From positions 19,331 through 83,330 of the forward strand of contig PLPK01000076.1 in assembly GCA_003159795.1 (NCBI GenBank): DNA of 64,000 bases, in the 5' to 3' direction. Position 1 is the first letter of the stretch; each line of letters begins with the position of its first letter. Under the pieces are notes generated by a model. That model did no database searches. It was not told the origin of the DNA and worked only from the letters and a program-made list of their open reading frames with translations. Positions 46,796-64,000 of the stretch are shown here, one piece after another. Source of the DNA: Acidimicrobiaceae bacterium. Lineage in GTDB: Bacteria > Actinomycetota > Acidimicrobiia > Acidimicrobiales > Bog-793. The position numbers and the translations under genes are program-made.

Positions 46796-47115
46796 GTGCC
46801 TGTCCCTCCCTGTCGAGCCAGTGCGGAACACCCCGGGACATCGGGGTGGAGCGGCCCGACGGCCCGCCGGGACGGGCCACCGCGGGTGCGGCGGTCGTGG
46901 CGGAGCTCCGGCGGGTGACGCCGATACAGGGACGCTGGGGGGAACGACCGATCGCCATGCCGGCAGCGACATCCCGGCAGGCGCGGTGAGAAGGGATCAG
47001 CGCGGTGACCCGATTGCGGTCGACACGCTAGGTGCGGCCAGTGACATTCCGCGCCCCTGGCGACGGGGGGCGGCGCCGGGTCCGGCGCGGCCCTCAGCTC
47101 AGTGCTGCGGGAGCC

Positions 47116-48288
47116 TCAGGCGCTCCGCGCGATCGACGCTCCCAGGTGGCGGGCGATGATCGCCATCCGCATCGGGATCATGTTCGCCATCTGCTCGACG
47201 TCTTTCATCCTCGGGTCCGAGTCGACGCTCGGATCCAGCTCGTCCCGGCGGGGGCGCGGGTGCAGCACCATGCTGTCCGGCGCCATCTGCTGGATCCGGT
47301 CGTAGTCGACGATCCAGCTCGCGTAGTCACGGGCCAGCTGCTCGGCGCGCACGATCTCCGCCGGGTCCTCCCCCGTGTACTCGTCCGGGTTGCGGCCGAG
47401 GTACAGGACGTCCGTCTCGTGCATCGCCGCGTCGAGGTCGCCGGTCCTCGTCAGGCGGTCGCCGAGCAGCTCGACGAGCGCGCGGGGCACTCGGGCCGCG
47501 GGCGACTCCACGGCGACGATCTTCATGCCCAGCGTCGCGGCCCCGATCATGAGGGAGTGGTGCGCCCGGTACCGCTCCTGGTCGCCGACCACCGTGATGA
47601 CCAGCCCGTCGAAGTGCTCGAACTTCTTGTGCACGGTGAACAGGTCGCCGAGGGCCTGGGTCGGGTGCTCGTTGTGCCCGTCGCCGAGGTTGATGACCGG
47701 CACGACCCGTACCAGCTGCCCGTACTCGAAGGCCTTGGCGATGACCTGGGCCGCGAAGGCCGGACCCCCGTTCTCGGCGGTCCGGATGCCCAATAGGTCC
47801 GCCTGGGTCGCGAACGCCACCCAGGAATCCGCGAGCGACTCCCCCTTCGCCTCCGAGGAGCTGCTCATACCGCTGATCAGCTCGGCGGAGCCGCCGAGCT
47901 TCCGCATCGCCGAGGTGCAGCTGCCGCCGGTCCGGGTCGACGGCTGCCGCATGATCGCCTTCATGACGGCGCGGGGCAGGAGCGGCACGCCGCGGCGCTC
48001 GGGGTCCCGGATGGCACGCTCGGCGGCGTAGGCCTCGTCGAGGTAGATCGCGATGTCGTCGGCAGACAGCTGGTGCATCGAGAGCAGGTTCTTGCCCGAG
48101 GCGTCGCCGTCGATCGGTTGGCTCACCGCGGACAGGTCAATCACTTCCACCGTCTCGGTTGCGGCCTTCTTCTTCTCCCTGGGCATGAGGCTCCAGTCAA
48201 ACGTGTCGATACGGGCTTCCGCCCCGCCGTCGGTCATGTCGGACAAGCCGGCGATCGGTCCACCACGACGGCTTCGCCATCCCGTCAT
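47116..48288 (-). CDS. Divergent aspartate/ornithine carbamoyltransferase-family protein (ATCase-like, paralog 3)
   Basis: QPSTRTGGS (degenerate STRTR), KGESLADS, GDGHNEHPTQALGDL and LHPRPRRDEL. It has an N-terminal extension of about 60-80 aa. Confidence 0.7.
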   Translation of the reverse strand: MTGWRSRRGGPIAGLSDMTDGGAEARIDTFDWSLMPREKKKAATETVEVIDLSAVSQPIDGDASGKNLLSMHQLSADDIAIYLDEAYAAERAIRDPERRGVPLLPRAVMKAIMRQPSTRTGGSCTSAMRKLGGSAELISGMSSSSEAKGESLADSWVAFATQADLLGIRTAENGGPAFAAQVIAKAFEYGQLVRVVPVINLGDGHNEHPTQALGDLFTVHKKFEHFDGLVITVVGDQERYRAHHSLMIGAATLGMKIVAVESPAARVPRALVELLGDRLTRTGDLDAAMHETDVLYLGRNPDEYTGEDPAEIVRAEQLARDYASWIVDYDRIQQMAPDSMVLHPRPRRDELDPSVDSDPRMKDVEQMANMIPMRMAIIARHLGASIARSA

Positions 48289-48472
48289 CCCAGGATCCTG
48301 GCCTGGAACCTCGGTTTCTCCGCGGTGATGCGAATCGCACGTGACGCTCCGACGGGGTCGGTCGTCGTCAGGCTAATTGCGTCCTGGGCGCGGATGGGGA
48401 ACAACTCTCGGTGACTTGCGGCCAGGTGAGCGCGCGCCCCCACGATCGTCGCGGACTGCCGGACCAGCTGGC

Positions 48473-48934
48473 CTAGAGATCGGTCACGTCGGCGATCGGC
48501 ACCGAGTTCTGCCCCCAGTCCGATCCCTCGGCCCAGGTCTCGCGCTTCCAGATCGGCACCGTCGCCTTGACCATGTCGAGAGCGCGCCGGGCCGCCTCGA
48601 GGGCGTCGGAACGGTGCGGGGTGCCGACGATCACCGCCACCGAAACCTCGCCGACTCGGAGCACACCCACACGGTGCAAAAGCGCGATCCGGCGCACCTC
48701 GGGGAATCGGGCCCGCACGGCGTCGGCGACCTCCACCATCTTGGTGGTGACGTAGGCCTCGTAGGCCTCGTACTCCAGGCTGACCACGCCGGGACGGCCC
48801 TCGGAGGCGTCGCGCACCGAGCCGCAGAACGCTACGACCGCCCCGCAGTCCGGCCGGGACGCCCAGGCCAGCGCCTCCGCTACCGGCAGTTCGTCGGCCG
48901 AGACGGCGATCCAGCTGTCCTTTTCACCCGTCAT
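48473..48934 (-). CDS. moaE: Molybdopterin synthase catalytic subunit
   Basis: 153 aa. GAVVAFCGSVRD, LEYEAYE, VGEVSVAVIVGTPHR and PIWKRE are typical of MoaE. Confidence 0.85.
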   Translation of the reverse strand: MTGEKDSWIAVSADELPVAEALAWASRPDCGAVVAFCGSVRDASEGRPGVVSLEYEAYEAYVTTKMVEVADAVRARFPEVRRIALLHRVGVLRVGEVSVAVIVGTPHRSDALEAARRALDMVKATVPIWKRETWAEGSDWGQNSVPIADVTDL

Positions 48935-49053
48935 CGCGAATCGATCGTAGGCCGGACGACCCGCCGCGCAACCGCCGGCGGGGCTGGCGCCGGCAGGCCT
49001 GCGGCCCAGCGCGCGGATGGCACCCTACCGGCTCCACCCTTACGCTCTCTGGC

Positions 49054-50208
49054 GTGCAGGAGATCCTCGGCGATATCGAGCGGTGGCGTTCGATCGGCCG
49101 GCGGGTGGCGCTGGCCCGGGTCATCGGGACCCAGGGATCGGCTCCGCGCGAGCCTGGCGCCGCGATGGCCGTGAGCGAGGACGGCGAGGTCGCCGGGTCC
49201 GTGTCGGGCGGTTGCGTGGAGACCGCGGTCGTCACCGAGGCACTCGACGCCCTCGCGACAGGAAGACCGCGACTCGCGACGTTCGGCTACTCCGACGACG
49301 AGGCCTTCGCCGTCGGCCTCACCTGTGGCGGGACGATCCGGCTGTTCGTCGAGCCCCTGGGACCCCCGGGGATGGACCAAGGAACCGTGGAGGCACTGCG
49401 CGGCCACCTCGAGGCACACCGGCCCGTCGCGCTCGCGACGGTCATCGAGGCCGACACCTGCGCCGGATCGGCGGCAGATGACCGCCCCACAGCCCCGGGT
49501 ACGACGATGCTCGTCACCCCCGACGCGGATTCTCTCGGCTCGTTGGGCGATCCCGGTCTCGACGACGCGGTGCGTCGGGATGCACTCGGGCATCTCGACG
49601 CCGGCACGACCGCCCTGCGCCGCTACGGCCCCCACGGCGAGGCCACCGGGCAGGACATCGCCGTCTTTGTCGAGAGCTTCGCCCCGCCTTCCCGGATGGT
49701 GATCTTCGGTGCGGTCGACTTCACCGCGGCGCTCGCCAGAGTCGCCAAGGTCCTCGGCTACCGGGTCACCGTGTGCGACGCACGTCCCGTGTTCGCCACA
49801 CCGGCGCGGTTCCCGATGGCGGACGAGATCGTCGTCGACTGGCCCGACCGCCACCTCGCGACGATCGGCCCCGAGCTCCGCGAGCGGGACGCGGTGTGCC
49901 TCCTCACTCACGATCCCAAGTTCGACGTGCCGGCCGTCGTCGCGGCCCTCGGCACCCGCGTCGGCTATATCGGCGTCATGGGGTCGCGCCGCACCGCCGC
50001 CGACCGCGAGAAGCGGCTGCGGGCGGCCGGTGTGGACGACGCCGGCCTCGCCCGGGTGATGGCCCCGATCGGCCTCGACATCGGGGCACGGACTCCGGAG
50101 GAAACGGCGATATCGATCTGTGCCGAAATCGTCGCCCTGCATTCGAGGAACCACACGGGCGTGCCGCTCCGCGCGACGGACGGACCCATCCACGATGCGG
50201 GTTCCTGA
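49054..50208 (+). CDS. XdhC/CoxI-family molybdenum-cofactor insertion protein
   Basis: N-terminal XdhC_CoxI domain (VIGTQGSAPREPGAAMAVSEDGEVAGSVSGGCVE) and a C-terminal Rossmann-like domain (MVIFGAVDFTAALA). Confidence 0.85.
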   Translation: MQEILGDIERWRSIGRRVALARVIGTQGSAPREPGAAMAVSEDGEVAGSVSGGCVETAVVTEALDALATGRPRLATFGYSDDEAFAVGLTCGGTIRLFVEPLGPPGMDQGTVEALRGHLEAHRPVALATVIEADTCAGSAADDRPTAPGTTMLVTPDADSLGSLGDPGLDDAVRRDALGHLDAGTTALRRYGPHGEATGQDIAVFVESFAPPSRMVIFGAVDFTAALARVAKVLGYRVTVCDARPVFATPARFPMADEIVVDWPDRHLATIGPELRERDAVCLLTHDPKFDVPAVVAALGTRVGYIGVMGSRRTAADREKRLRAAGVDDAGLARVMAPIGLDIGARTPEETAISICAEIVALHSRNHTGVPLRATDGPIHDAGS

Positions 50209-50282
50209 ACGCGAGGACTCGCTGACAATCGCCGGTGGCGTGACGGGGCCGGACCGCTAGCGTTCGAAGCGAGAGAGATCCG

Positions 50283-52673
50283 TTGGACACGATCACCACC
50301 GTCGGGACCCGAGGCAGGGTCGGAGAAGCCACTCCGCGCATCGACGGGGAACCGAAGGTCACGGGCGCGTTCGCCTACGCGAGCGATCTGCACCGCGAAG
50401 GGATGCTCTTCGGGGCCACCCTGCGCTCCCAGGTGGCGTACGCCCGCATCCACAGCGTCGACACATCTGGGGCGGCCGCGACCCCCGGCGTGGTGGCGGT
50501 CATGCTCGGCTCCGACGTGCCGGGCAAGAACCGCTTCGGGCTGAACTTCTTCGACCAGCCGGTCCTCGCCGAGGACGTCGTGCGCTATTCGGGCGAGCCG
50601 ATCGCCATCCTCGCCGCCTCGACACCGGGGATCGCCCGGCAGGCGATAGGACGGATCGCCGTCGAGCTCGAGGAGCTGCCCGGCGTCTACGACATGGAGA
50701 AGGCGCTGGCACCTGACGCGCCGCGCCTGCACGAGTTCGGGAACGTCCTGCGTCACGTGCACATCGTCCACGGCGAGCCCGACACCGCCGAGGCGGACGT
50801 CTGGGTCGACGGCTACTACGAGACGGCGATGCAGGACCAGGCGGCGCTCGGACCGGAGGCGGGACTGGCGGTGCCGGCCGAGGACGGCGGCGTCGACCTC
50901 TACGTCGCGACGCAGTGGCTGCACGTCGACCGCGAGCAGATCGCGCCGTGCCTGGGACTGCCCGAGGACAAGGTCCGGTTGCACCTCGCCGGTGTCGGGG
51001 GCGCGTTCGGTTCCCGCGAGGACATCCACATGCAGATCCACGCCTGCATGCTGGCCCTGCGAACCGGCCGGCCCGTGAAGTTCAGCTACGGGCGCGAGGA
51101 GTCCTTCCACGGCCACGTCCACCGCCACCCCTCGAGGATCTGGATGCGGCACGGCGCCAACCGCGACGGCCGCCTCGTGACCCTCGACGTCCGGCTGATG
51201 TTCGACGGCGGCGCCTATGCCTCCTCCTCCCCCGCCGTGGTCGGCAACGCGGCGAGCATGGCCGCCGGTCCCTACGAGATTCCGAATGTCCGGATAGAGG
51301 GCACGGTCGTCTACACGAACAACCCGCCGTGCGGGGCGATGCGCGGCTTCGGCGCGCCGCAGGTCTGTTTCGCCCACGAAGCCCAGATGGACAAGCTCGC
51401 CCGTGCCCTCTCGCTCGACCCGGTCGAGCTGCGGTTGCGCAACGCCGTGTCCACCGGCTCGGTCCTGCCGACCGGACAGGTCGTCACCGGAGCCGCCCCG
51501 GTGCGGGAGCTGATCGAGCGATGCGTCGCGATCCCCCTGCCGGAGCCCGAACCCGACCGGGGCCGCGACCTCATGCACTACCCCGGCGGCGCCGGCAACG
51601 TCACCCACGGCGAGGGGATCCGCCGCGGCGTGGGCCTCGCCGTCGGCTACAAGAACGTGGCGTTCAGCGAGGGTTTCGACGACTCCGCGACGGCGCGGGT
51701 GACCCTCGCCCGCACCCCCGACGGTCCCGAGGCCGAGATCCACACCGCCGCGGTCGAGATGGGCCAGGGCCTCTACACCTTCCTCACCCAGGTCGTGCGG
51801 ACCGAGCTCGAGATCGACCGCGTCGAGCTCCACGCCATCGACACCCTGATCGGTGGCGCCGGGTCGACCTCGGCGTCGCGCCAGTCGACGATGGCGGGCG
51901 GGGCCGTCCAGATGGCCTGCGCCGCGGTCCGCGAGGCCCTTTACGGCCGGGCGCGGGCCCGGACGGCGTCGGTGCCGCCCGGCGCCGAGCTCGCGCTCGG
52001 CGATGGCTGGGTCACCTGTGACGGCGCGCCGCTCGTCGAACTGGGGGACCTGCTCGACGAGCCGGTCTCGTGCGAGGCCGTCTACCACCACCGCCCGACG
52101 GGGAACCTCGATGAGAACGGCCAGGGGGACATCCACGTCTCGTTCGCCTTCGCAGCCGAGCGGGCGGTCGTCGAGGTGGACGAGGACCTCGGGCTCGTAC
52201 GCGTCCTGCAGGTGGCGGCGGCGATCGACGTCGGCCGCGTCCTCAATCCGCTCGGTCTCACGGGCCAGATCGAGGGGGCGACCGCCCAGGGCCTCGGGCT
52301 CGGGCTGATGGAGGAGGTCCAGCTCCGAGACGGCGTGATCTCCAACCCGTCCTTCACCGACTACCTCATCCCGACCATCCTCGACATGCCGCCGGTCGTC
52401 TCCGTGGCGGTCGAGGATCCCGAGCCCGGCGCCCCCTACGGCCTGAAGGGCATCGGCGAGTCGCCGACCATCGTCGCTACGGCGGCCGTGGTCGCCGCCT
52501 TGCGCGACGCGACGGGGCGGGAGCTGAACCGCGCGCCGGTCACGCCGGACGAGCTCGTCGGCCTGCGGGGTCCCGCAACGACGTCGGGCCCCCCACCGAT
52601 TCCCGAGGTACCCGGCCAGAAGTCGGTGCCGTTCTACTTCGGGATGAGCTCCGGCCAGCAGAAGATCATGTAG
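50283..52673 (+). CDS. Xanthine dehydrogenase-family molybdopterin-binding large subunit
   Basis: 796 aa with an a/b-hammerhead N-terminus (RIDGEPKVTGAFAYASD), GGAFGSRED, AMRGFGAPQ and LKGIGESP. Confidence 0.9.
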   Translation: MDTITTVGTRGRVGEATPRIDGEPKVTGAFAYASDLHREGMLFGATLRSQVAYARIHSVDTSGAAATPGVVAVMLGSDVPGKNRFGLNFFDQPVLAEDVVRYSGEPIAILAASTPGIARQAIGRIAVELEELPGVYDMEKALAPDAPRLHEFGNVLRHVHIVHGEPDTAEADVWVDGYYETAMQDQAALGPEAGLAVPAEDGGVDLYVATQWLHVDREQIAPCLGLPEDKVRLHLAGVGGAFGSREDIHMQIHACMLALRTGRPVKFSYGREESFHGHVHRHPSRIWMRHGANRDGRLVTLDVRLMFDGGAYASSSPAVVGNAASMAAGPYEIPNVRIEGTVVYTNNPPCGAMRGFGAPQVCFAHEAQMDKLARALSLDPVELRLRNAVSTGSVLPTGQVVTGAAPVRELIERCVAIPLPEPEPDRGRDLMHYPGGAGNVTHGEGIRRGVGLAVGYKNVAFSEGFDDSATARVTLARTPDGPEAEIHTAAVEMGQGLYTFLTQVVRTELEIDRVELHAIDTLIGGAGSTSASRQSTMAGGAVQMACAAVREALYGRARARTASVPPGAELALGDGWVTCDGAPLVELGDLLDEPVSCEAVYHHRPTGNLDENGQGDIHVSFAFAAERAVVEVDEDLGLVRVLQVAAAIDVGRVLNPLGLTGQIEGATAQGLGLGLMEEVQLRDGVISNPSFTDYLIPTILDMPPVVSVAVEDPEPGAPYGLKGIGESPTIVATAAVVAALRDATGRELNRAPVTPDELVGLRGPATTSGPPPIPEVPGQKSVPFYFGMSSGQQKIM

Positions 52674-52745
52674 GGATCGGAGACCAGGACCGATGCGGTT
52701 TATGCAACTGCGGGCACGGGTGGCACGGCGGCGGAGGGTGACACC

Positions 52746-53618
52746 ATGAGCTACCTGCGCCCGACGAGCTGGGCGGAGGCGCTCGCCGCCCGAGCGGAGT
52801 ACCCCGAGGCCGTCGTCGTCGCGGGAGGGACCGACGTGATGGTCGAGATCAACTTCGGTCGCCTCCACCCATCGGCCCTCCTCGACCTGTCACGGGTCGG
52901 GGAGCTGCGCGCGCTGGGCCGGGAGGACGGGCACGTCCGGGTGGGCTCCGGCGTCACCTACCAGTCGATCATGCGTGATCTCCCGGGCGAACTCCCCGGC
53001 CTCGCCGCCGCCGCCCGCACCGTGGGATCGCCTCCGATCCGGAACCGCGGCACGATCGGCGGCAACCTCGGCTCGGCATCCCCCGCCGGGGACTGCCACC
53101 CGCCGCTCCTCGCCTGCGGCGCCGAAGTCGAGATCGCCTCGGTGCACACGAGCAGAACCACGCCCGTCGCCGACTTCTTCGTCGGCCCGAAGCGCAGCGT
53201 CCTCGGCCCCGACGAGCTGATCGCCGCCGTCTGGGTGCCGGCGGCGACAGGGCCGCAGACGTTCTCCAAGGTGGGGTCGCGCAACGCCATGGTCATCGCG
53301 ATCTGCTCTTTCGCCCTGGCACTCCACCCGGACGTTGGCCGGGTAGGCACCGGGATCGGCTCCGCCGGGCCCGTGCCGCTGCGGGCCCGCGCCGCCGAGC
53401 AGTTCCTCGAGGGGCATCTCGGCGAGACGGGGGCCTGGGAATCGCGACCACGCCTGGGTGACGCCGTCGTCGATGAGTTCGCCCGACTTGTTGCCGGGGC
53501 CGCCCAGCCGATCGACGACGTGCGGGGCTCCGCCGACTACCGCCGGCACGCCCTCGGGGTGGTCGCGCGGCGATCGCTCATGTGGTGCTGGGACGAGTTC
53601 CGGGGAGGCAGGCCGTGA
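52746..53618 (+). CDS. Molybdenum hydroxylase FAD-binding subunit (CoxM/XdhB-like)
   Basis: VVAGGTDVMVEINFG, RNRGTIGGNL and a CO-dehydrogenase flavoprotein C-terminal domain. Confidence 0.85.
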   Translation: MSYLRPTSWAEALAARAEYPEAVVVAGGTDVMVEINFGRLHPSALLDLSRVGELRALGREDGHVRVGSGVTYQSIMRDLPGELPGLAAAARTVGSPPIRNRGTIGGNLGSASPAGDCHPPLLACGAEVEIASVHTSRTTPVADFFVGPKRSVLGPDELIAAVWVPAATGPQTFSKVGSRNAMVIAICSFALALHPDVGRVGTGIGSAGPVPLRARAAEQFLEGHLGETGAWESRPRLGDAVVDEFARLVAGAAQPIDDVRGSADYRRHALGVVARRSLMWCWDEFRGGRP

Positions 53619-54073
53619 GGGTCTCGTTGACCGTCAACGGGGTTGACCGTGTGGTCGACGGCGTCGAGGAGCACGAGAGCCTCCTCCACCTGCTGCGGGA
53701 ACACCTCGATCTGTTCGGCACGAAGAACGCCTGCGAGCAGGGTGAATGCGGATCGTGCTCGGTTTACCTCGACGGCGTGCTGGTCTGCTCCTGCCTTGTC
53801 GCCGCCGGTCAGGCGGAAGGGGGCACCGTCACGACGGTCGAGGGATTGTCCGACGATGGCATCCTCGATCCCGTCCAACAAGCCTTCATCGAGGCTGGCG
53901 CCGTCCAGTGCGGATTCTGCACCCCGGGCTTCGTCCTGGCCGCCCATGACCTCCTGCGACACGTGCCGGATCCCGACGACGCCCAGATCCGCGAGGCGCT
54001 ATCGGGAAACCTCTGCCGGTGCACCGGCTATCAGAAGATCATCGACGCGGTCCACCGCGCGGCAGGCCGCTAG
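53615..54073 (+). CDS. Molybdenum hydroxylase [2Fe-2S] small subunit (CoxS-like)
   Basis: CEQGECGSCSV, CGFCTPG and CRCTGYQKI. The GTG start overlaps the FAD-subunit stop (GTGA). Confidence 0.9.
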   Translation: MRVSLTVNGVDRVVDGVEEHESLLHLLREHLDLFGTKNACEQGECGSCSVYLDGVLVCSCLVAAGQAEGGTVTTVEGLSDDGILDPVQQAFIEAGAVQCGFCTPGFVLAAHDLLRHVPDPDDAQIREALSGNLCRCTGYQKIIDAVHRAAGR

Positions 54074-54126
54074 TTGGCTGGTCGGATATTCTTGCATTCG
54101 AGCAGCTCAGCGCACTGAACAGTGCT

Positions 54127-54164
54127 CGCGATTCGGTCGGGCGTCGGCTGAATACCCGAATCGC
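54127..54164. terminator. Hairpin between the convergent xdh and carbamate kinase operons
   Basis: CGCGATTCGG / CCGAATCGCG, a 10-bp perfect stem with an 18-nt loop, in a relatively AT-rich 112-nt spacer. Confidence 0.4.
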
Positions 54165-54185
54165 GCGACCTCGTTCGACGCCGAT

Positions 54186-55136
54186 CTAGTCGACGGTGAA
54201 GTGTGTCCCCGTCCGGCCGGCGACCGCCCTCGCGAGGTTCGGCGTATCCGTGACGATGGCGTGCTTCCCCCCGTTCTCGAGGTACTCGATGACCGCCTCG
54301 ATCTTCGGCGCCATGCTTCCTGCTGCGAAGTGCACGCCCTCGGCGAGATACCGCCGCGCCTCGGCGAGGCTGAGATGGTCCACCCAGCGCTCGACAGGCG
54401 TGCCGAAGTTGAGCGCCACCTTCTCGACCGAGGTGGAGATGAGGAACAGCTCGGCCCCGAGGTTGCGCGCGAGCAGGGAGCAGCCAAGGTCCTTGTCGAT
54501 CACGGCCTCGACCCCCTGGAGGTCTCCATCGGGGTCGGCGACGACGGGGATCCCCCCGCCGCCGACCCCGATGACGATGACCCCGGCCGAGAGAAGCGAC
54601 CTGATCGCGTCGAGCTCCACGATGCGCAGCGGGCGCGGTGAGGCGACGACGCGCCGCCAACCCCGATTGGCGTCCTCGACGACGTCCCAGCCGTCCTGCT
54701 GCCGGCGCCGACGCGCCTCGCCATCGTCCATGAACGATCCGATCGGCTTGGTCGGGTTCGTGAAGGCGGGATCGTCCGCCGCCACCTCCGTCTGGGTCAC
54801 GATCGCCACCACGGGCCTGTCCATGGCCCGGCGCCGCAGCACGTTCTGCAGGTTCTGCGCGAGGGCGTAGCCGATCGCGCCCTGGGAGTCCGCGCCGCAG
54901 GCGTCGAGCGGCACCTCGTGGAGCTCGTGGGCGGCGAGCTCCGAACGGCGCAGGATGAAGCCCACCTGCGGGCCGTTGCCGTGGCCGATCACGACGTCCC
55001 AGCCGTCGGCGATCATGGCCGCCACGTGCTGGGACGTTTCGTGGGCCGCGATGTACTGGTCACGCACCTCCTGGTGCATCCGGTCCTTGATCAGCGAGTT
55101 GCCGCCGATCGCAACGACGGCGAGCCGATCGCCCAT
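54186..55136 (-). CDS. Carbamate kinase
   Basis: 316 aa with LAVVAIGGNSL, VVIGHGNGPQVG and GGGGIPV. This is the ArcC/YqeA family. Confidence 0.9.
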   Translation of the reverse strand: MGDRLAVVAIGGNSLIKDRMHQEVRDQYIAAHETSQHVAAMIADGWDVVIGHGNGPQVGFILRRSELAAHELHEVPLDACGADSQGAIGYALAQNLQNVLRRRAMDRPVVAIVTQTEVAADDPAFTNPTKPIGSFMDDGEARRRRQQDGWDVVEDANRGWRRVVASPRPLRIVELDAIRSLLSAGVIVIGVGGGGIPVVADPDGDLQGVEAVIDKDLGCSLLARNLGAELFLISTSVEKVALNFGTPVERWVDHLSLAEARRYLAEGVHFAAGSMAPKIEAVIEYLENGGKHAIVTDTPNLARAVAGRTGTHFTVD

Positions 55137-55147
55137 CGCCGGGACCT

Positions 55148-56125
55148 CTAGCCCATCGTCAGCGCCATAACGGCCTTCTGGCCGTGCAGGCGGTTCTCGG
55201 CCTGGTCGTAGACGACGGAGTGCGGCCCGTCGATGACCTCATCGGTGACCTCGACGTTGCGGTCCGCCGGCAGCGGGTGCATGAAGATCGCCTCCTCGCT
55301 CGCCAGTCCCACCCGGCGGCTGTCGGTGATCCAGTCGGAATACTTGGCGATGAGCTTCGCCCCCTCGGCCTCGTCCGTCGTCGTGCGCAGCGCCCCCCAG
55401 CTCTTGGCGTAGATGACGTCCGTGCCCCGCATGCCGGCGTCGAAGTCGTGCGAGACCTCGAACGAGGCGTGAGCCCGGCGGGCCTCGGACTCCGCCTGCT
55501 CGACGATCTCGGGCAGGAGGCTGAACTCGGGCGGGTGGACGAGCCGCACGTTCATGCCGAAGCGCGGGAGCAACAGCGCCAGGCTCTGGGGCACGCTGAT
55601 CGGCTTCTGGTAGCTCGCGGCACAGGCCCAGCTGATCGTCGCCGTGCGGCCCCGCGGGTCGCCAAAGCGCTCGATGATCGTCATCAGGTCCGCCAGCGCC
55701 TGGTGGGGGTGGAAGACGTCGCACTGCATGTTGAGCACGGGCACCCGGCTCGCCGCGGCGACGTCGCGCAGGTATTTGTTGCCCACCAGCCAGTCGACGT
55801 TGCGGATGGCGATGCCGTCGTTGTAACGGCCGAGGATCTCGCCGATCTCCTTGGCGGTGTCACCGTGGGCGATCTGGGTGGTCCTGCTCTCGATGAACTG
55901 GGCGTGCCCCCCGAGCTGCGCCATGCCGGCCTCGAACGAGGCCCGCGTCCGGGTACTCGAGAAGAAGAACAGCATCGCGAGGACCTTGTCCCGCAGCAGC
56001 GGATGGGGCCGCCCGAGGGCGCGGTCGCGCTTGAGCTCGAACGCCACGTCGAGCACGGTGTCGATCTCCTGTCTGGTCCACTCGGAGAAGTCGATGACGT
56101 CCCGACCCCTAAGGTTCGTCTGCAT
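55148..56125 (-). CDS. YgeW-type (knotted) carbamoyltransferase of unknown substrate
   Basis: FFSSTRTRASFE, IAHGDTAKE, NMQCDVFHPHQALADL, SWACAASYQKPISVPQS, RFGMNVRLVHP, IYAKSW and FMHPLPADRNVEVTDEV. By recollection these closely parallel E. coli YgeW and the AOTCase-like clade rather than ArgF. Confidence 0.75.
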   Translation of the reverse strand: MQTNLRGRDVIDFSEWTRQEIDTVLDVAFELKRDRALGRPHPLLRDKVLAMLFFFSSTRTRASFEAGMAQLGGHAQFIESRTTQIAHGDTAKEIGEILGRYNDGIAIRNVDWLVGNKYLRDVAAASRVPVLNMQCDVFHPHQALADLMTIIERFGDPRGRTATISWACAASYQKPISVPQSLALLLPRFGMNVRLVHPPEFSLLPEIVEQAESEARRAHASFEVSHDFDAGMRGTDVIYAKSWGALRTTTDEAEGAKLIAKYSDWITDSRRVGLASEEAIFMHPLPADRNVEVTDEVIDGPHSVVYDQAENRLHGQKAVMALTMG

Positions 56126-56137
56126 GGTCCCTCCCCC

Positions 56138-57088
56138 CTAGCTCACGGCCCCGAGGACCAGCGAGAGCAGCGCCATGCGCATCACGACGCCGTTGAAGGC
56201 CTCGAACCAGTAGCGCGCGTGGCGGGTCTCGTCGACGTCGGCGGGCAGCTCGTCCATCCTCGGCAGCGAGTGCAGGATGATGGCGTCGGTCTTCGCCCTC
56301 GTCGCCATGAGCTCCTTGGTCACGCGGTAGGCGACCGGGGTGAGCCCGTGCTCCTCGACCTCCTCCCGGGACTTCGTGTAGTCGGCCTGCACGACCGGCT
56401 CCATGTAGACGACGTCCGCCTTCGAGAGGCACTCTTCGACGCTCTCGAACTCGGCATAGCGCAGGCCGCGGGTCGCGAGCTCGGCCGCGAACTCCGGCAG
56501 GAGCGACATCTCCGGCGGGTAGACGAGCGACGCCGTCATGTCGAATTGCGTCATCGCGTAGAGGATCGAGTGCATCGTGCGCATCCGCATGTCCCCTACG
56601 CAGAGCACGTTCAGCCCGTCGAGCGTGCCCTTGTCCTTCCAGATCGTGTAGAGGTCGGTGAGCACCTGGGTCGGGTGCTCGCCCCAGCCGTCACCGCAGT
56701 TGATCACCGGCACCGAGGACCACCTGGCGGCCTCGGCGGGTGCGCCCTGCTCGAAGTGGCGCATCGCGATCACGTCGCCGTAGTACTCGAGCATGTGGAC
56801 GGTGTCCTTGATGCTCTCCTGGTAGAAGTCTCCGGCCCGCGTCATCTTGGCGTCGGAGAAGCCGAGCACGTGCCCGCCCAGTCGGTGCATCGCCGCCTCG
56901 GTGGCGAGACGGGTCCTGGTGCTCGGCTGGTAGAAGGCGGTGAGCAGCGTCTTGGAAGCGAGCAGGTCCCCGTTCTCGCGCCGCTCGGCAAACGGCCTCA
57001 GCTCGTCGGCGACCCGGAAGACCTCGAAGAACTCGTCTCGCTCGAAGTCCTTGAGCGAGAGGATGTCCCGTCCGGCAAAGCTCCTCAT
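56138..57088 (-). CDS. ATCase-like carbamoyltransferase (paralog 2) with an altered second-substrate site
   Basis: YQPSTRTRLATE, IAMRH, GDGWGEHPTQVLTDL, VGDMRMRT and HSLPRMDEL. The segment that looks equivalent to the ATCase Asp-binding MTRVQKER reads MEPVVQAD. Confidence 0.75.
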   Translation of the reverse strand: MRSFAGRDILSLKDFERDEFFEVFRVADELRPFAERRENGDLLASKTLLTAFYQPSTRTRLATEAAMHRLGGHVLGFSDAKMTRAGDFYQESIKDTVHMLEYYGDVIAMRHFEQGAPAEAARWSSVPVINCGDGWGEHPTQVLTDLYTIWKDKGTLDGLNVLCVGDMRMRTMHSILYAMTQFDMTASLVYPPEMSLLPEFAAELATRGLRYAEFESVEECLSKADVVYMEPVVQADYTKSREEVEEHGLTPVAYRVTKELMATRAKTDAIILHSLPRMDELPADVDETRHARYWFEAFNGVVMRMALLSLVLGAVS

Positions 57089-57119
57089 CTTGTACCGCCC
57101 TTCCTGAATTGAAGGCTCG

Positions 57120-58109
57120 TCACGAGCCGAAAGTGTCGATCATCAGCCGCACGTCGCTGCCGAGCGGGTAAAGGATCGGGCAGGTCGCGCCGTTGGCGAT
57201 GTACTCGTCGACCTTGGCGCGGCACTCCTCGGGGGTTCCCGAGGCGGTGATCATCTGGACCGCGTCGTCGGGCACGAGCTTCATCGCCCGGTGGATCTCC
57301 TCCGGCCCGGCCGGCCAGGTGAGTACCTCGCCGATCTCCTCGATGAGGGTGGGGTCCACCCCGCTCGCTTTCATGATGTGGGGTTGCTGCCCGAGGTACT
57401 GGGTGAGGAGCTCCCGGGACCGGTCGAGGGCCAGCCCGCGGTCCTCGTCGAGCGAGCACACGACGAGCTGGGGCCGGTCGATCTCGTCGACCGATCGCCC
57501 GGCGCGGGCCGCGCCGATGGCGAGGTGCTCCATCGCCTGTCTGTTGTACTCGGGGCTCACCATGTAGTTGAGCACGACCCCGTCGGCGACCTCGCCGGCG
57601 AGCTCCATCATCTGCATCCCGGTCGCGCCGATGTAGATCGGCACGTGCTTGGGCGAGCGATCGCCGTGGACGATGTCGATCTCCACGTCGTCGAGGTGCA
57701 CGAAGGTGCCGTGATACGTGACGCGCTCCATGGCGAGGAGCCGGCGGGTCGCCTCGACGACCTCACGCATCGCCAGCAGCGGTCGGGTGCGGTTGACACC
57801 GACTTTCGTGGCGAGCGGCTCCCACCACGCGCCGAGCCCGAGGATCACCCGCCCCGGGGCGAGCTCGTCGAGCGTCGAGAACGTCGCGGCCAGCAGGCCC
57901 ACGTTGCGCGTCCAGATCGGGATCACCCCGGAGGCGACCTTGATCCGGCTCGTCACGGCGGCGTAGGCGGCCATCGGCACGGTCGCCTCCCGAACGAGCC
58001 GGCTCTCCGCCTGCCAGACCGCCTCGAATCCCCGCTCCTCGGCATAGCGCGAGTACTCCATCCCGTCCCGGATCGGGTGCATGTCCTGCAGGTACAAGGC
58101 GGCCCTCAT
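57120..58109 (-). CDS. Luciferase-like (LLM) flavin/F420-dependent oxidoreductase
   Basis: MRAALYLQD...[15 protein letters not shown]...VILGLGAWW is typical of LLM-class oxidoreductases. ATG 58109 overlaps the ssnA-like stop by 1 nt (TGATG). Confidence 0.8.
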
Positions 58110-59464
58110 CACTTCTCCCTCCGTGGATCGTACGTGTGCACCGGCGTCGCCTCGAGACGGCTCCACAACCGCCCGGCCACATGGACCTCGTCGGCGGCGA
58201 CGGCGGCCTCGTCGACACGGGTCGACCGACCGTCCTCGACGACGAGCTCGCCGGCCACGTAGACGTCACGCACCCGTCCCGGCGCCAGTCCGAAGACCCA
58301 GTGCCCCGCAAGGTTCTCGGCACTGATGGGTGTCGGCGGGTCGTAGGAAAGAACGCAGAGATCGGCCGGTGCGCCGGGCCGCAGTGTGCCGAGCAGCGGC
58401 TCGCCGAAGCGCTCACCGGCGACGCGCGCCCCCTCGGCCAGCCGGGCGAGCGGCCAATCCGGTGGCGTGGCGAGGTCCGACTCCCTGGCGCGGAAGAACC
58501 CGGCCTGGGCCTCGGCCACCATGTCGCCGCCGATGCCGTCGGTCCCCAGCGCGACCTTCCCCGGGCGCCGGTTGAACGGCGAGTGGCCGACACCGTTGTT
58601 CATGTTCGAGCGCGGATTGCACACGACGGTCGCGCCCGTCTCCTCGATGAGGCGCGCCTCGTCGTCGTCGACGTGCACGCAGTGCGCGAGCAACGCGCGC
58701 TCGTTCAGCACACCCGCCTCGGCGAGCCGCCTCGCCACCCGACGGCCGGCGCGCCGCAGGCTGTCGCGCTCGTCGACCGCGCCCTCGGCCACGTGGATGT
58801 GCACGCCGACCCCGGCGTCGGAGGCCACCTCGGCGCAGCCCTCGAGGGTCTCGTCGGACAACGTGAAAGAGGCGTGCGCCCCCACCATGCCCCGCGCCAG
58901 GTCGCGGAACTCCCGCAGGAAGCGCCGGTTCTCCTCGATCCCGGCCGCCGCGCGTACCGGGCCGTCCCGGTCGGAGACCTCGTAGCAGAGCACCGAGCGG
59001 ACGCCCAGCTCCCCCAGGGCTCCGGCGATCACGTCGAGCGAGCCGTCGATGAAGTTCGGTGAGGCGTGGTGGTCGATGATCGTCGTCGTGCCGGCGAGCA
59101 GCGCGTCGAGCCCGCCCCGCACCGCTGAGGCGCGCACCGACTCCTCGTCGAGCGCGCGGTCGAGCCGCCACCAGATCCGCTGGAGGATCTCCGTGAAGTC
59201 GGTCGGCGGCAAAAGCGCATAGGGCATCCCCCGGGAAAGCGCCGAGTACAGGTGGTGGTGGGCACAGACGTTGCCCGGCACGATCAGCGTGCCGGAGCAA
59301 TCCCGGGTCACGGGGCCCCGCTCCCCCGCCCCGAGCGAACGCACGCGCCCGTCGGCGATGACCAGGTCAGCTCGGATGACCTCGGGCGGCGACAGGGTCA
59401 CGACGACCGTCGCGTCGCACAGGGCGACCGGCGGGGCGGCGCCGGCGCGGTCCGGCCGGGTCAT
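58109..59464 (-). CDS. ssnA: SsnA-type amidohydrolase
   Basis: [58 protein letters not shown] and [11 protein letters not shown]. By recollection these are near-identical in pattern to E. coli SsnA. Confidence 0.85.
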
Positions 59465-60812
59465 CGCCCGCGTTCGATCCCCGTGAACAGCAGCACCACC
59501 CGTTCGGTGGGTGCTACCGCGCCCACTGCTATCAGTTCGGCGAGCCCGGCGAGCCCGGCCGAACCGGTGGCACTGACGGCGTAACCGGCCTCCTGGCCGA
59601 GCTCGTGCGCCCTGACGAGACGCGCCTCGTCGACGACGACGGGCTCACCGCCCGTCTCGAGCATGGCCCGCACGACCGCCAGCCAGTCGTACGTCTCGTC
59701 GTCGAGGATCCCCTCGGCGACGCTTCGCGGCTCGGTTTCCCAGGGCCACATGAACATGGAGCGCCGCTTGGCGGCCGACGCGAGGACCCGGGCGAGCTCG
59801 GCGGCGTCCGACGGGTCGACGAGCTCCCCGCGCACCCGGCGCCAGGCGCGCTCGAGCGGGTGGGCGGCGGCCGTCTGCACGGTGTGGATCCGCGGCAGGC
59901 CTCCGAGCTCACCGATGGCGTGCGCCTCGCCGAGCGCCTGCGCACAGCTGCTCGCGAGCGCTCCGCCACCCACCTGGACGACGAGGTGGTCGAGCGTGAG
60001 CCCCTCCCCCGCCAGCTGCGACACGAGCTCGTAACCGAGGGTCTCGCCCCCCTCGATCGCCAGGCCGTTCAGGTTCCCCTGGCAGGTGAAGGCGAGGGCG
60101 CCCTCGTCGAGCTCGGCGAGCAGGCGCAGGTAGGTCGGGTCGCCGCTGGCGCCGTTGCGGCGTTCGCACACCACGATCTCGGCGCCGAGCTCGACTAGCC
60201 GCCGGACGATGCCGTCGTCGGCGCCGACGGGCACGAAGACCCGCAACGGCCAGCCGACCGCCGCCGCGACGACACCGGCCGCGAGCGCGGCGTTCCCACA
60301 GCTCGCGACGGCGAGTGTCGGGCGCTCGCCGCGAGGGGCGAGTCCGAGCGCCCCGGCCACCTCGAGATGCAGGGCCACGCCCATCAGATGGCGCGACTTG
60401 TGCGAGCCGGCGACGTTGCCGGTCTCGTCCTTCACCCACACGCCTCCCGGCTCAGAAAAGCCGAGGGCGCCCGAAAGGACGTCGCTGCGCTCGAGCGGCG
60501 TCACCGAGAACCCGTGGCCGTCGACCCGGGCGACCGCCGAGTCGAGCCGGCGCACCAGCTCGACGAAGGCCGCGTCACTCATCCCACCGGCAAGCGCGCG
60601 GTGGTAGCTGTGCAGGAACCCCCGGTAAGCGACGAAGGAGCAGGGATCGGCCGCCCCCGCCCCCGGGAAGCGCAGCCCGTCGGGCGGAAGGACGCGGCTG
60701 AGCACGTGGTCGACATCCCCGTCCCGGTGACGCGGGCAGCGGAATGGGTAGGGGTCGCGAGGCCCGGGCGAGGAAGCGCAGCCGGCGCAGACGAGCCTGC
60801 TCGCCGGGGTGT

Positions 60813-60816
<4 letters not shown>
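59461..60816 (-). CDS. Fold-type II PLP-dependent enzyme with an N-terminal Cys/His-rich segment
   Basis: [21 protein letters not shown] (PLP-lysine region), [13 protein letters not shown] and [12 protein letters not shown]. The N-terminus carries CAGC...CPRH. 4-nt overlaps with both neighbouring genes. Confidence 0.7.
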
Positions 60817-62309
<1,493 letters not shown>

Positions 62310-62533
62310 CTTCCTCCTCCGTGTCGCTTCCTCGCGACGATCCCCTCGTCGCTACCAGCCGCACCTGAGGTCCCCGAGCCTCCTTCGACCGCTCCGTGCA
62401 CCTGTCTTATCCGACAATCTTGGCCGGGCATCGCGCCCGGCCCTTCCCTCACCACGGGACGGCTCACCCGCCCGGGCTCCTACCCGCCTGCGCACCCTGG
62501 TGACCACACGGGTCCCCCGGCGCGCCCGACAGG

Positions 62534-62568
62534 GCGGTGGCCCCCGCGCGGCGCGCGGGGGCCACCGC
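62534..62568 (-). terminator. Strong hairpin immediately downstream of the NCS1 permease gene
   Basis: GCGGTGGCCCCCGCGC / GCGCGGGGGCCACCGC, a 16-bp perfect stem with a 3-nt loop, 7 nt from the permease stop codon. Confidence 0.55.
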
Positions 62569-62575
62569 TATCTGC

Positions 62576-64000
62576 CTAGGAGGAGTGCTTTGCGACCTCC
62601 TTTGGAACCGAACGGAACGACAGCACCAAGTAGACGACCGCGCTGACGATCATTCCGAAGGCCCAGCTGAAGTCGGCACCGTGGGTCCAGTTCGACAACG
62701 GCGAAGAGTACGAGGGCGTGTAGAACGCCGCGTCGATCCACATCATCGCCGCGAACATTCCAGCTCCCAGCGATACCAGCGCCTTCCAGTTGAAGCCGCC
62801 GTTGCGCCAGTACAAACCACCGTGCTTGGCGGCCAGTGAAGCGAACTCGTAACGGCCGCGCCGGAGCCAGTAGTCGACGATGTAGACGCCGAACCACGCA
62901 CCGAGCCAGACGACGATGTAGTCGAGGAACCCGGCAAGGTCCGTGTAGAAGTTCCCCTTGAAGATCACGAGGGCCGTCACGCCACCGGAGATGATGGTGT
63001 CGATGACGACGCAGACCCACCGCTTGGCCGGGAGGCCGAGCGCCTGGAGGGTGACCCCCGAGGAGTACATGTCGAGCGTGTTGATCGCGAACAGCTGCGG
63101 CAGCGCCAGGATCAGGAACGGCCAGAAGAACCAGCTGGCGAACGCCGTCGGAAGAGCGGCGGCGGCACCGGGGCCGTAGATGTTGCTCTGGAGCGACGTG
63201 CTGACGAGGTAGGCGCAGGCGCCGAGGAGCTCGAGCAGGATCGACGGGATGGCCCCGCCGAGCGTCGCGGCCCAGAACGTCTTCGCCGGGGGGGTGTCAG
63301 CCGGCAGGTAGCGGGAGTAGTCCGCCGCGTTCTCGGTCCAGCCGAGACCCCCTGCCGAGACGATGAGCACGAGCCCGGTGGTCCACAGCCACCACGAGTC
63401 CGTGCCGTGCGCGTGCAGGTCGGACAGGTGAACGTGGGGAAGGACCAGGCACGCCATGATGGCGAAGACCACGACGAACACGTAGGACAGGTAGTGCAGG
63501 ACCTTCGTGATCGTCGCGTGCCCGAGGAACGGCACGACGAACTGGATGAGGACGGCGATGATGATCGCGATCGTCTTGCCGGTGTCGTTGAGGTGGATCC
63601 CCTCGTGGCTGAACATCGCCACGACGACCAAGACCGCGATCACGAGACCTTCGACCTCGAAGCCGACCTGGGTGATCCAGTTGAACAACGACGGTGCGCG
63701 GTTCCCGTTTCGCCCGAAGGGCGCGCGGCTCACCATGAAAGTCGTCGTTCCCGACTTCGGCCCGGCAAGGCTCGCCGCGCCGAGGAAGACGTAGACGACG
63801 TTCCCGAGGAGGATCGCGAAGACGGCCTGCCAGAACGTCAGCCCGAAGGCGACGATCAGGGCGCCGTAGACGAGGAACTCGACGTTCCAGATCCCGCCGG
63901 CCCACATCCAGAACAGGCCCGCTGGGCGCATTTTCCGGTCGGCGTCGGCGACGTGCTCAATGCCCCGCTGCTCGAGTTTGAAGGCGCTATACCCCTCAGC
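62576..64000 (-). CDS. NCS1 (purine-cytosine/hydantoin/allantoin-type) permease, 5' end outside the window
   Basis: Polytopic with a CodB/NCS1-like pattern (FWMWAGGIWNVEFLVYG, FGRNGNR, NWITQVGFEVEG). The reading frame stays open upstream of Met 63931 (LEQRGIEHVADADRK...) to the window edge. Confidence 0.85.
   Translation of the reverse strand, partial: AEGYSAFKLEQRGIEHVADADRKMRPAGLFWMWAGGIWNVEFLVYGALIVAFGLTFWQAVFAILLGNVVYVFLGAASLAGPKSGTTTFMVSRAPFGRNGNRAPSLFNWITQVGFEVEGLVIAVLVVVAMFSHEGIHLNDTGKTIAIIIAVLIQFVVPFLGHATITKVLHYLSYVFVVVFAIMACLVLPHVHLSDLHAHGTDSWWLWTTGLVLIVSAGGLGWTENAADYSRYLPADTPPAKTFWAATLGGAIPSILLELLGACAYLVSTSLQSNIYGPGAAAALPTAFASWFFWPFLILALPQLFAINTLDMYSSGVTLQALGLPAKRWVCVVIDTIISGGVTALVIFKGNFYTDLAGFLDYIVVWLGAWFGVYIVDYWLRRGRYEFASLAAKHGGLYWRNGGFNWKALVSLGAGMFAAMMWIDAAFYTPSYSSPLSNWTHGADFSWAFGMIVSAVVYLVLSFRSVPKEVAKHSS

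Follow-up and report, generated by a model that had tools for sequence, protein, structure and literature searches.

The closest described counterpart to the gene cluster analysed here is the reductive urate pathway, which was reconstituted in 2025 for Escherichia coli and Clostridium (Li et al. 2025, PMC12507026; Liu et al. 2025, bioRxiv 10.1101/2025.04.24.650524). In that pathway XdhD-YgfM converts urate to 2,8-dioxopurine ("yanthine"), ring reduction by YgfK and ring opening by SsnA then lead to ureidomethyl-hydantoin, and HyuA converts the latter to 2,3-diureidopropionate; YgeW frees one ureido group as carbamoyl phosphate, with which YqeA makes ATP, YgeY hydrolyses the other, and YgeX takes 2,3-diaminopropionate to pyruvate (PMC12507026; 10.1101/2025.04.24.650524). 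Which ureido group YgeW removes is disputed between the two papers, and a 2025 commentary described the reductive pathway as restricted to obligate or facultative anaerobes. A link to coenzyme F420 is made in one sentence, for the Chloroflexota reductase only (Li et al. 2025, PMC12507026). Earlier, Barba et al. (2013, PMC4016543) had noted that a pseudo-aspartate carbamoyltransferase (pseudo-ATCase) of subgroup 2 in Nocardioides sp. JS614 adjoins a ygeW homologue, xdh genes, and hyuA; this subgroup came from a single genome and was given no function, and subgroup 1 was identified as ureidoglycine carbamoyltransferase, which acts on allantoate. Here we analysed a 64,000-nt stretch of DNA (the window) from an Acidimicrobiaceae bacterium (GenBank assembly GCA_003159795.1, contig PLPK01000076.1, positions 19,331 to 83,330 of the forward strand), in which a prior reading of the bare sequence (the original prediction) had recognized a relative of the E. 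coli ygeW...xdhD locus. That reading had described the chemistry of the E. coli locus as largely unassigned, a statement made outdated by the two 2025 papers. We consider it likely that the window locus specifies a form of reductive urate (2,8-dioxopurine) degradation that is linked to F420.

The window has a G+C content of ~70%, and between 47 and 64 kb a frame-specific GC3 (third-codon-position G+C) analysis combined with a listing of open reading frames (ORFs) gave one clear gene per stretch. Families were assigned with Pfam and NCBIfam profile models using curated cut-offs. The minus-strand genes at the heart of the cluster are the following.

62576-64000, minus strand: NCS1-family permease, presumed substrate importer (PF02133, 149 bits; TIGR00800, 124 versus a cut-off of 353)
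60813-62309, minus strand: PLP498, a 498-residue fold-type-II pyridoxal-phosphate (PLP) enzyme (weak PALP match)
59461-60816, minus strand: PLP451, a 451-residue threonine-synthase-like PLP enzyme (PALP, 130.7 bits)
58109-59464, minus strand: SsnA-family amidohydrolase (best NCBIfam families NF005540 and TIGR03314)
57120-58109, minus strand: LLM, a luciferase-like oxidoreductase of 329 residues (best NCBIfam matches are F420 classes)
56138-57088, minus strand: ATC316, a pseudo-aspartate carbamoyltransferase of 316 residues (TIGR00670 and motifs)
55148-56125, minus strand: OTC325, a 325-residue carbamoyltransferase of the OTCase (ornithine carbamoyltransferase)/AOTCase/YgeW group (below every NCBIfam cut-off)
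54186-55136, minus strand: carbamate kinase, counterpart of YqeA (NF009007, 373 versus a cut-off of 266)

The seven genes from PLP498 to the carbamate kinase are joined by junctions of -4, -4, -1, +31, +12, and +11 nt, with GGAGG-type ribosome-binding sites at the junctions. The NCS1 gene stands 266 nt from PLP498 and is cut at its 5' end by the window edge; on an identical public contig (L082) the full gene has 497 codons and ends at 64069. A plus-strand operon of xdhC and molybdenum hydroxylase genes converges on the carbamate kinase gene, with 112 nt between the two. The ORF listing confirmed the gene order, strands, lengths, tight junctions, preceding NCS1 gene, and convergent molybdenum operon given in the original prediction. 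Scans of 46.9-64 kb for promoter and terminator consensus sequences found nothing exceeding shuffled background, and Rfam at gathering thresholds gave zero matches in the 64-kb window or in L082, and hence no riboswitch lead. Recurrence of the gene set in dozens of genomes, set out below, shows that these genes are not together by chance.

Kinship with the E. coli locus held up at the protein level. The SsnA-like protein fell slightly short of the two SsnA models (NF005540, 422.7 versus a cut-off of 444; TIGR03314, 406.7 versus 455.5), the next family being at 145 bits, and it was 37% identical to E. coli SsnA over 433 residues and 25% identical to GuaD. In a neighbour-joining (NJ) tree made without bootstrap, E. 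coli SsnA nested inside the clade of the window protein with GuaD as outgroup, a grouping with SsnA that agrees with the original prediction. We propose that it opens the ring of reduced 2,8-dioxopurine. With 47% identity to YqeA, the carbamate kinase is the counterpart of that enzyme and is predicted to make ATP from carbamoyl phosphate and ADP.

An exact-sequence look-up of PLP498 identified L082, which was identical to the window over all 13,188 overlapping nucleotides and extends the locus past position 64000. In this extension, divergent from the NCS1 gene, we found a deaminase-like amidohydrolase, a dihydropyrimidinase, a YgfM-like flavin adenine dinucleotide (FAD) subunit, and a fused Fe-S/molybdenum protein. 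The first is described by the following line.

64397-65722 in window-equivalent positions (L082 6588-7913): 8-oxoguanine-deaminase-like amidohydrolase (NF006055, 538 versus a cut-off of 532)

The dihydropyrimidinase/hydantoinase passes TIGR02033 (482 versus a cut-off of 393) and is 41% identical to E. coli HyuA, the FAD subunit is 31.5% identical to YgfM, and the fused protein of 1007 residues is 36.6% identical to XdhD over 1006 residues. The best match of the fused protein is the XdhD model TIGR03313 at 691 versus a cut-off of 1102, so we refer to it as XdhD-like. YgfK, YgeY, and YgeX were not found in the window by tblastn nor among the called genes of the L082 extension. The original prediction had missed counterparts of YgeY, YgfK, and HyuA; the first two are indeed absent from the window, but a HyuA homologue lies just past its end. 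Overall, four of the eight E. coli roles have homologues in the window or within 7 kb past its end, OTC325 stands in for YgeW, and the three remaining roles are covered by proposed analogues only. Neither yqeC nor selD-type selenium genes were seen in the window and the ~7 kb beyond it, although an absence from ~71 kb says little about selenium dependence.

Hundreds of species-level genomes have SsnA-family genes accompanied by the same partners (at least 597 of 600 scanned stretches were confirmed), and metagenomic homologues number in the thousands, mostly from Acidimicrobiales, other Actinomycetota, and Chloroflexota. The closest homologues of the window proteins are in Acidimicrobiales metagenome-assembled genomes (MAGs). 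With the SsnA alignment we retrieved 80 genome loci, in which genes were counted by tblastn with window proteins, E. coli proteins, and locus-derived representatives; many of the contigs are short, and the counts are accordingly lower bounds. A PLP498 homologue near SsnA was present in at least 46 of the 80 loci, a ThrC-like PLP gene (of the PLP451 type or the Chloroflexota f8 type) in at least 45, LLM in at least 44, an OTC325/YgeW-type gene in at least 39, ATC316 in at least 28, carbamate kinase in at least 26, and a hydantoinase in at least 17. These loci span Actinomycetota, Chloroflexota, Binatia, Dormibacterota, Planctomycetota, Armatimonadota, and a Pleurocapsa cyanobacterium, and the gene set is co-conserved over this spread of phyla. 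L090, a 77%-identical relative on an 865-kb contig, has the same 12-gene core (XdhD-like, YgfM-like, hydantoinase, deaminase, NCS1, PLP498, PLP451, SsnA, LLM, ATC, OTC, carbamate kinase) followed by unrelated genes. Because the L090 core gives way to unrelated genes at this point, we regard the PucD/XdhC/MoaE block that follows the carbamate kinase in the window as a variable neighbour.

LLM is most likely an F420-dependent oxidoreductase. Its top 15 NCBIfam matches are all F420 classes, each below cut-off (Mer at 162 bits), and its nearest PDB entries are F420-dependent Mer (1.7e-37), Fgd, and Adf, with flavin mononucleotide (FMN) enzymes at ~1e-9. Orthologues adjoining SsnA in different phyla retain 65-86% identity; those of Chloroflexota are 65-71% identical to the window protein, and in the Chloroflexota loci the genes npdG, cofE, a FbiB C-terminal domain, cofD, and cofC precede LLM, lying between it and SsnA. 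In these loci npdG, cofE, cofD, and cofC each score above their own curated cut-offs. We propose that LLM serves as the 2,8-dioxopurine reductase in place of YgfK. Among the 80 loci, LLM was found in 44 and a stand-alone homologue of the YgfK N-domain in four, with no locus having both, and full-length YgfK was found in none. The four stand-alone proteins (L002, L014, L036, and L037) match YgfK residues 1-410 with 37-40% identity (E-values of 1e-69 to 1e-76), and L002, which has the YgfK N-domain and no LLM, otherwise has almost the same cluster as the window. The Chloroflexota loci also carry two genes without a counterpart in the window: a conserved protein of ~230 residues with no NCBIfam match lies between PLP498 and SsnA in ~20 loci (e.g., L057 9293-9988), and a GT2-like membrane protein lies between the ThrC-like gene and PLP498 (e.g., L057 6398-7390).

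The two carbamoyltransferases of the cluster, ATC316 and OTC325, are neighbours, and 18 such adjacent ATC-OTC pairs were found. ATC316 passes one aspartate carbamoyltransferase (ATCase) model (TIGR00670, 248.8 versus a cut-off of 236.95) and fails another (NF002032, 220 versus 263). Its active site has HSLP rather than HPLP and no equivalent of K84, and the R229/Q231 aspartate-binding segment (RxQ) is replaced and is interrupted by a 12-residue insertion. It carries three of the four "pseudo-ATCase 2" motifs (STRT, HPTQ, and H[ST]LP), and no position could be assigned to the fourth, GX[SC]. Although they lack key aspartate-binding residues, proteins of this family will probably be labelled pyrB in annotations. 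Among the 39 loci with an OTC325/YgeW-type gene, 24 had ATC316 only, seven had YgeY only, none had both, and eight had neither, an exclusion with a Fisher p of 4e-4, uncorrected for phylogeny and contig truncation. We propose that ATC316 phosphorolyses one ureido group, replacing the YgeY hydrolase.

OTC325 had been called YgeW-like, but by profile hidden Markov model (HMM) cut-offs and by published motifs it lies outside the YgeW family. Its best NCBIfam match is OTCase (252 versus a cut-off of 306), and it is below the cut-offs of both YgeW models, NF005538/TIGR03316 (164.5 versus 453 and 154.2 versus 500). It is 32% identical to YgeW and has in common with it the KSW and SYxKPxSVPQ motifs, and it lacks the three YgeW insertions and C-terminal tail (325 residues versus ~396 for YgeW). 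It has HPHQ and HPLP, leaving the YTCase motifs HP[TMF]Q and H[AVC]LP (Barba et al. 2013, Table 1) unmatched, and it is also without the DxxxSMG ornithine-binding motif and the HCLP motif of OTCases. In pairwise comparison with PDB entries it scored 203 bits with the Pyrococcus furiosus OTCase, 181 with AOTCase, and 149 with YgeW (3q98), while in a small NJ tree, in which E. coli ArgI was the only OTCase included, it was sister to YgeW. We treat OTC325 as a putative functional counterpart of YgeW that stands outside the YgeW family. From their derivations we infer only that the ATCase-derived ATC316 should act on the N-alpha (2-) ureido group and the OTCase/YgeW-derived OTC325 on the omega (3-) ureido group, the latter in agreement with the order that Liu et al. 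gave for YgeW.

The two PLP enzymes both look catalytically competent. PLP498 has a cysteine-synthase-like core with N- and C-terminal extensions, and its HK112V motif, STGN loop, and GSAGT phosphate loop are invariant across 41 homologues. Its AlphaFold2 model (predicted local distance difference test, pLDDT, 81.5) found cysteine synthase, cystathionine beta-synthase (CBS), and beta-cyanoalanine synthase as the best PDB folds, with TM-scores of 0.7-0.8 normalised to target length; the sequence and fold searches of PDB gave these generic neighbours only and did not narrow the substrate. PLP451 found only distant threonine synthases in PDB, scores 82 versus a cut-off of 303 on threonine synthase models, and conserves the lysine in GSHK. 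Automated calls on public contigs start it 37 codons late (414 residues; L082 11605-12849), dropping an N-terminal CxGC...CP motif. The 451-residue reading is supported: of the 17 homologues in the alignment, 15 conserve this degenerate Cys motif and two are represented by ORFs that are off-frame or misaligned, and the gene so read overlaps each of its neighbours by 4 nt. The motif resembles the zinc ribbon of some threonine synthases.

We propose that PLP498 is the replacement for the terminal lyase YgeX, and PLP451 is its constant partner. Only one locus had a YgeX-like gene: L032, a 3-kb contig on which no PLP498 is seen, carries a fragment of it at its end. In L036, which has the YgfK N-domain, SsnA, a true YgeW (65% identical to that of E. 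coli), YgeY, and carbamate kinase, a PLP498-like gene stands directly upstream of SsnA, where YgeX would be expected, and no YgeX is in view. PLP451 does align with YgeX (24% identity over 220 residues, E = 1e-5), at a level typical for any two PALP-fold proteins. The pair could comprise D- and L-specific lyases, a racemase and a lyase, or the two chains of a heteromer. The ThrC-like gene of the Chloroflexota f8 type is 27% identical to the PLP451 type. In Chloroflexota and Planctomycetota clusters (L057 5056-6318 and others) the ThrC-like gene passes the threonine synthase model NF006050 (319.6 versus 303), and since it is consistently inside the SsnA cluster, either a thrC has been recruited or NF006050 over-calls.

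Toward lower coordinates from the carbamate kinase gene the window continues with the following genes.

53615-54073, plus strand: 2Fe-2S subunit of xanthine dehydrogenase, 152 residues (best families are xanthine dehydrogenase Fe-S subunits, all below cut-off)
52746-53618, plus strand: FAD-binding subunit of xanthine dehydrogenase (XdhB-type, 163 bits, below cut-off; Pfam FAD_binding_5 and CO_deh_flav_C)
50283-52673, plus strand: molybdopterin subunit of a PucD-type xanthine dehydrogenase (TIGR03196 pucD, above cut-off)
49054-50208, plus strand: XdhC-family molybdenum-cofactor insertion factor (Pfam XdhC_CoxI and XdhC_C; NF045664, 208 versus a cut-off of 350)
48473-48934, minus strand: MoaE, molybdopterin synthase large subunit (NF007959, 81 bits, below cut-off)
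47116-48288, minus strand: ATC390, a third ATCase-like gene (below ATCase cut-offs)

The in-window molybdenum enzyme had been taken for the XdhD/YgfM counterpart, an assignment that did not survive: its molybdenum subunit passes the pucD model (851.4 versus a cut-off of 783.65) and reaches only 190 versus 1102 on TIGR03313, and it consists of three separate subunits, unlike the fused XdhD. In the 152-residue reading the start of its 2Fe-2S gene overlaps the FAD gene by 4 nt. In 13 loci we found PucD orthologues with 60% identity or more, and the operon there often includes a guanine-deaminase-like gene; in L090 the enzyme is not beside the cluster. It is likely that this PucD-type xanthine dehydrogenase feeds urate into the pathway as a variable neighbour and is not part of the core. 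MoaE is an accessory gene whose adjacency is not conserved. Homologues of the 8-oxoguanine-deaminase-like protein (48-54% identity) lie inside or beside the PucD-type operons in 10 loci, and L002 has one of 75% identity just upstream of that operon, which suggests that oxidised guanine may be one feedstock. Relatives likewise have adenine deaminase and guanine/8-oxoguanine-deaminase-like genes inside or beside their molybdenum-enzyme operons.

A further class of molybdenum enzyme was seen in 21 loci (L003, L006-L009, L012, L013, L015-L017, L020-L026, L028, L031, L033, and L056), where a fused Fe-S/molybdenum hydroxylase without an FAD subunit ends at most 400 nt upstream of SsnA (at ~7.3-10.0 kb). 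Its identity to PucD does not exceed 45%, and that to the XdhD-like protein is ~30%. With this fused hydroxylase the family uses up to three molybdenum-enzyme classes, and the enzyme that makes 2,8-dioxopurine may differ by host.

Taken together, these assignments suggest the following route. A purine or urate-like base would enter via the NCS1 permease, and the PucD-type xanthine dehydrogenase and the 8-oxoguanine-deaminase-like enzyme would funnel purines to urate. The XdhD/YgfM-like molybdenum enzyme beyond the window would then dehydroxylate urate to 2,8-dioxopurine; the original prediction had this step as hydroxylation of the heterocycle, yet the molybdenum step proper to the pathway is a reductive dehydroxylation. 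LLM with F420H2 would give a hydride, most simply to the C6=N1 imine, doing the job of the Fe-S flavoprotein YgfK, after which the SsnA homologue would hydrolyse the reduced ring to ureidomethyl-hydantoin and the dihydropyrimidinase would open the hydantoin to 2,3-diureidopropionate. Both ureido groups would leave by phosphorolysis and none by hydrolysis, one through OTC325 acting like YgeW and one through ATC316 acting for YgeY, and carbamate kinase would convert the carbamoyl phosphate to as many as two ATP per urate. Finally, PLP498 and PLP451 would act for YgeX, converting 2,3-diaminopropionate (or the last beta-N-substituted alanine) to pyruvate and ammonia. The predicted logic of ureido phosphorolysis to carbamoyl phosphate and ATP matches the published biochemistry of YgeW and YqeA. 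Of the new members that had been proposed, LLM, ATC316, and the PLP enzymes are plausible replacements for YgfK, YgeY, and YgeX, but the third ATCase-like gene is probably not a member.

Several points weigh against this reading. All functions in the cluster are predictions from sequence and gene context, and the SsnA-like, LLM, OTC325, and XdhD-like proteins all score under their curated NCBIfam cut-offs. The diaminopropionate ammonia-lyase model (YgeX, NF006058) was listed for neither PLP498 nor PLP451, and the reading does not explain the need for a second PLP enzyme. NCS1 is not the transporter family used by E. coli (UacT, XanQ), and the window genome does not have the fused hydroxylase of the 21 loci at that position. 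No F420 biosynthesis genes are in the 64-kb window, and the host's F420 supply leans on the general availability of this cofactor in Actinomycetota. The substrate of LLM could also be a purine isomer other than 2,8-dioxopurine. Lastly, truncated contigs and common descent both bear on the counts of mutual exclusion.

The most serious competitor, though in our judgement an unlikely one, is a related but different purine route in which, for instance, LLM acts directly on urate, xanthine, or 8-oxopurines, the intermediates are not those of E. coli, and the substrate of the PLP pair is a mono-ureido amino acid instead of diaminopropionate. It would account for two PLP enzymes of new subfamilies in place of one YgeX, and PLP498, being of the cysteine synthase type (beta-replacement/elimination), could eliminate urea from albizziin; the up to three molybdenum-enzyme classes among relatives and the disagreement between the papers over the ureido group removed by YgeW point the same way. 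However, the cluster keeps one-to-one counterparts of XdhD/YgfM, SsnA, HyuA, and YqeA and one of YgeW type, and because the displaced enzymes swap one for one in otherwise similar clusters (L002 and L036), we expect the intermediates to be those of E. coli. Reductive catabolism of pyrimidines or hydantoins seems to us rather improbable. Here NCS1 would import uracil, thymine, or hydantoin, LLM would reduce it, the dihydropyrimidinase would open the ring, and beta-ureidopropionate would be phosphorolysed by a carbamoyltransferase, with carbamate kinase making the ATP. Known NCS1 substrates do include uracil, hydantoins, and allantoin. The amidohydrolase next to the cluster passes TIGR02033, an equivalog model for dihydropyrimidinase, and SsnA has been described in the literature as PydB-related, but the urate-pathway HyuA of E. 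coli belongs to the same hydantoinase family (41%), and SsnA, the XdhD/YgfM-like proteins, PucD, and the 8-oxoguanine-deaminase-like protein, to which relatives add adenine and guanine deaminases, speak for purines. Moreover, two carbamoyltransferases and beta-eliminating PLP enzymes would fit the conversion of a diureido to a diamino C3 acid, not a route to beta-alanine.

It is very improbable that the carbamoyltransferases are ordinary pyrimidine or arginine genes (pyrB; argF or arcB with arcC) that lie beside purine genes by chance. ATC316 does pass the ATCase equivalog TIGR00670, OTCases are both the top NCBIfam match and the closest solved structures of OTC325, and OTCase with carbamate kinase is the core of the arginine deiminase pathway. 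Yet the residues that define these enzymes are missing or changed (K84, HSLP, and R229/Q231 in ATC316; DxxxSMG and HCLP in OTC325, which is also below the OTCase cut-offs), both genes are translationally packed with SsnA and LLM and are co-conserved across phyla, and no arcA, pyrC, or carAB is nearby. The Nocardioides orthologue of ATC316, too, was classed as a pseudo-ATCase distinct from the real pyrB of that genome (Barba et al. 2013, PMC4016543). We rejected the arginine-deiminase and pyrB/argF readings on motifs and context. Our preference thus remains with F420-linked reductive urate degradation. A broader form of that proposal, which we offer tentatively and would not yet favour, is that the cluster represents a widespread, possibly O2-tolerant form of the pathway in soil and water Actinomycetota and Chloroflexota, in which F420 substitutes for the Fe-S flavoprotein, two dedicated transcarbamylases double the ATP yield, and a new PLP pair completes the route; the split between ATCase-derived and OTCase-derived enzymes would then settle the dispute over the ureido group taken by YgeW.

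ATC390 is probably not part of this system, and as a pathway member it was rejected on synteny. It has STRTG, HPRP, and RNP motifs and is below both ATCase cut-offs, and none of the 80 SsnA loci has a homologue; in L087/L090 the ATC390 homologue lies ~35 kb from the cluster, beside ArdC and integrase genes. The family (typically ~350 residues; L087, L088, and L089) is common to Acidimicrobiales and Candidatus Saccharibacteria, with ~55-72% identity and the PGAP label "hypothetical protein". In one Saccharibacteria genome (two contigs) the homologue stands between a DHO_dh gene and a DHOase-like gene, an order like pyrD-pyrB-pyrC. Saccharibacteria are epibionts of Actinobacteria, and a transfer of ATC390 between the two is conceivable. 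In the window ATC390 is followed by a gene for an ArdC-N/M78-peptidase protein (45980-46972) and small ORFs (44800-47000), and the same neighbourhood in L087 (9300-17000) has two tyrosine integrases and an ERCC4 nuclease inserted; it looks like a mobile-element remnant borders the metabolic cluster. The rest of the window (1-44000) is ordinary chromosomal sequence, with genes for an MFS_3 transporter, a class-III aminotransferase, a LigB-type dioxygenase, B12-dependent methionine synthase, an H+-pyrophosphatase, an MBOAT/DUF459 pair, CysS, ValS, an ABC exporter, and a GDP-mannose dehydratase. The description of the host as a WhiB-containing high-GC genome was accurate: a WhiB-like motif (C...CxxC.....C...GVWGG) is at 24539-24700, and this WhiB-like gene adjoins a PdtaS-type GAF histidine kinase on the opposite strand (24539-26653). 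Together with the closest homologues, the WhiB-like motif assigns the organism to Actinomycetota.

These loci suggest that the reductive urate pathway is far more widespread than among anaerobes. If our proposal is right, purine catabolism would be added to the roles of F420, substrate-level phosphorylation would give two ATP per urate where one was known, and a function would be at hand for two large families whose present labels are "cysteine synthase", "pyridoxal-phosphate dependent enzyme", or "threonine synthase". The ATCase equivalog would be seen to admit a family that risks annotation as pyrB, and the swap of YgeY and ATC316 would amount to a natural experiment on the disputed order of ureido cleavage. 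The alternative enzymes, which may be O2-tolerant, would then be candidates for engineering urate-lowering strains.

Beyond the one passage of Li et al. (2025), literature searches found no characterization of the F420 variant, nor did they find later work on pseudo-ATCase subgroup 2. What appears to be new here, and undescribed in the searchable literature, is the combination of genes, the transcarbamylase for YgeY, the PLP pair for YgeX, the patterns of exclusion, and the breadth of occurrence. Compared with known systems, the in-window molybdenum enzyme resembles B. subtilis PucABCDE in its PucD large subunit, separate FAD and 2Fe-2S subunits, and XdhC-type factor; unlike the Puc system it lies beside a reductive, not an oxidative (uricase), urate route, and this adjacency is not kept in close relatives. 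ATC316 shares STRT, HPTQ, and H[ST]LP with the Nocardioides JS614 pseudo-ATCase 2 and likewise adjoins a YgeW-related gene, and the JS614 arrangement of pseudo-ATCase, YgeW homologue, xdh genes, and hyuA is also seen in a Nocardioides MAG locus (L004); the putative role in replacing YgeY is proposed only here. The association of SsnA with LLM is shared with the Chloroflexota F420 variant, whereas cofC/D/E and npdG are inside the Chloroflexota clusters and not in the window, which is from Actinomycetota. With the E. coli/Clostridium pathway the locus has in common SsnA, YqeA, and YgeW-type homologues in the window, with HyuA, XdhD, and YgfM homologues just beyond, and the same predicted succession of molybdenum step, ring reduction, two ring openings, ureido cleavage with ATP formation, and PLP-dependent end step. 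It differs in having an F420-type luciferase-like reductase for YgfK, a pseudo-ATCase, its second carbamoyltransferase, where the known pathway has the YgeY hydrolase, a pair of unrelated fold-type-II PLP enzymes for YgeX, and a transporter of the NCS1 family instead of the NCS2 or AzgA type, and its host is an Acidimicrobiales bacterium, whereas the known pathway is from gut anaerobes.

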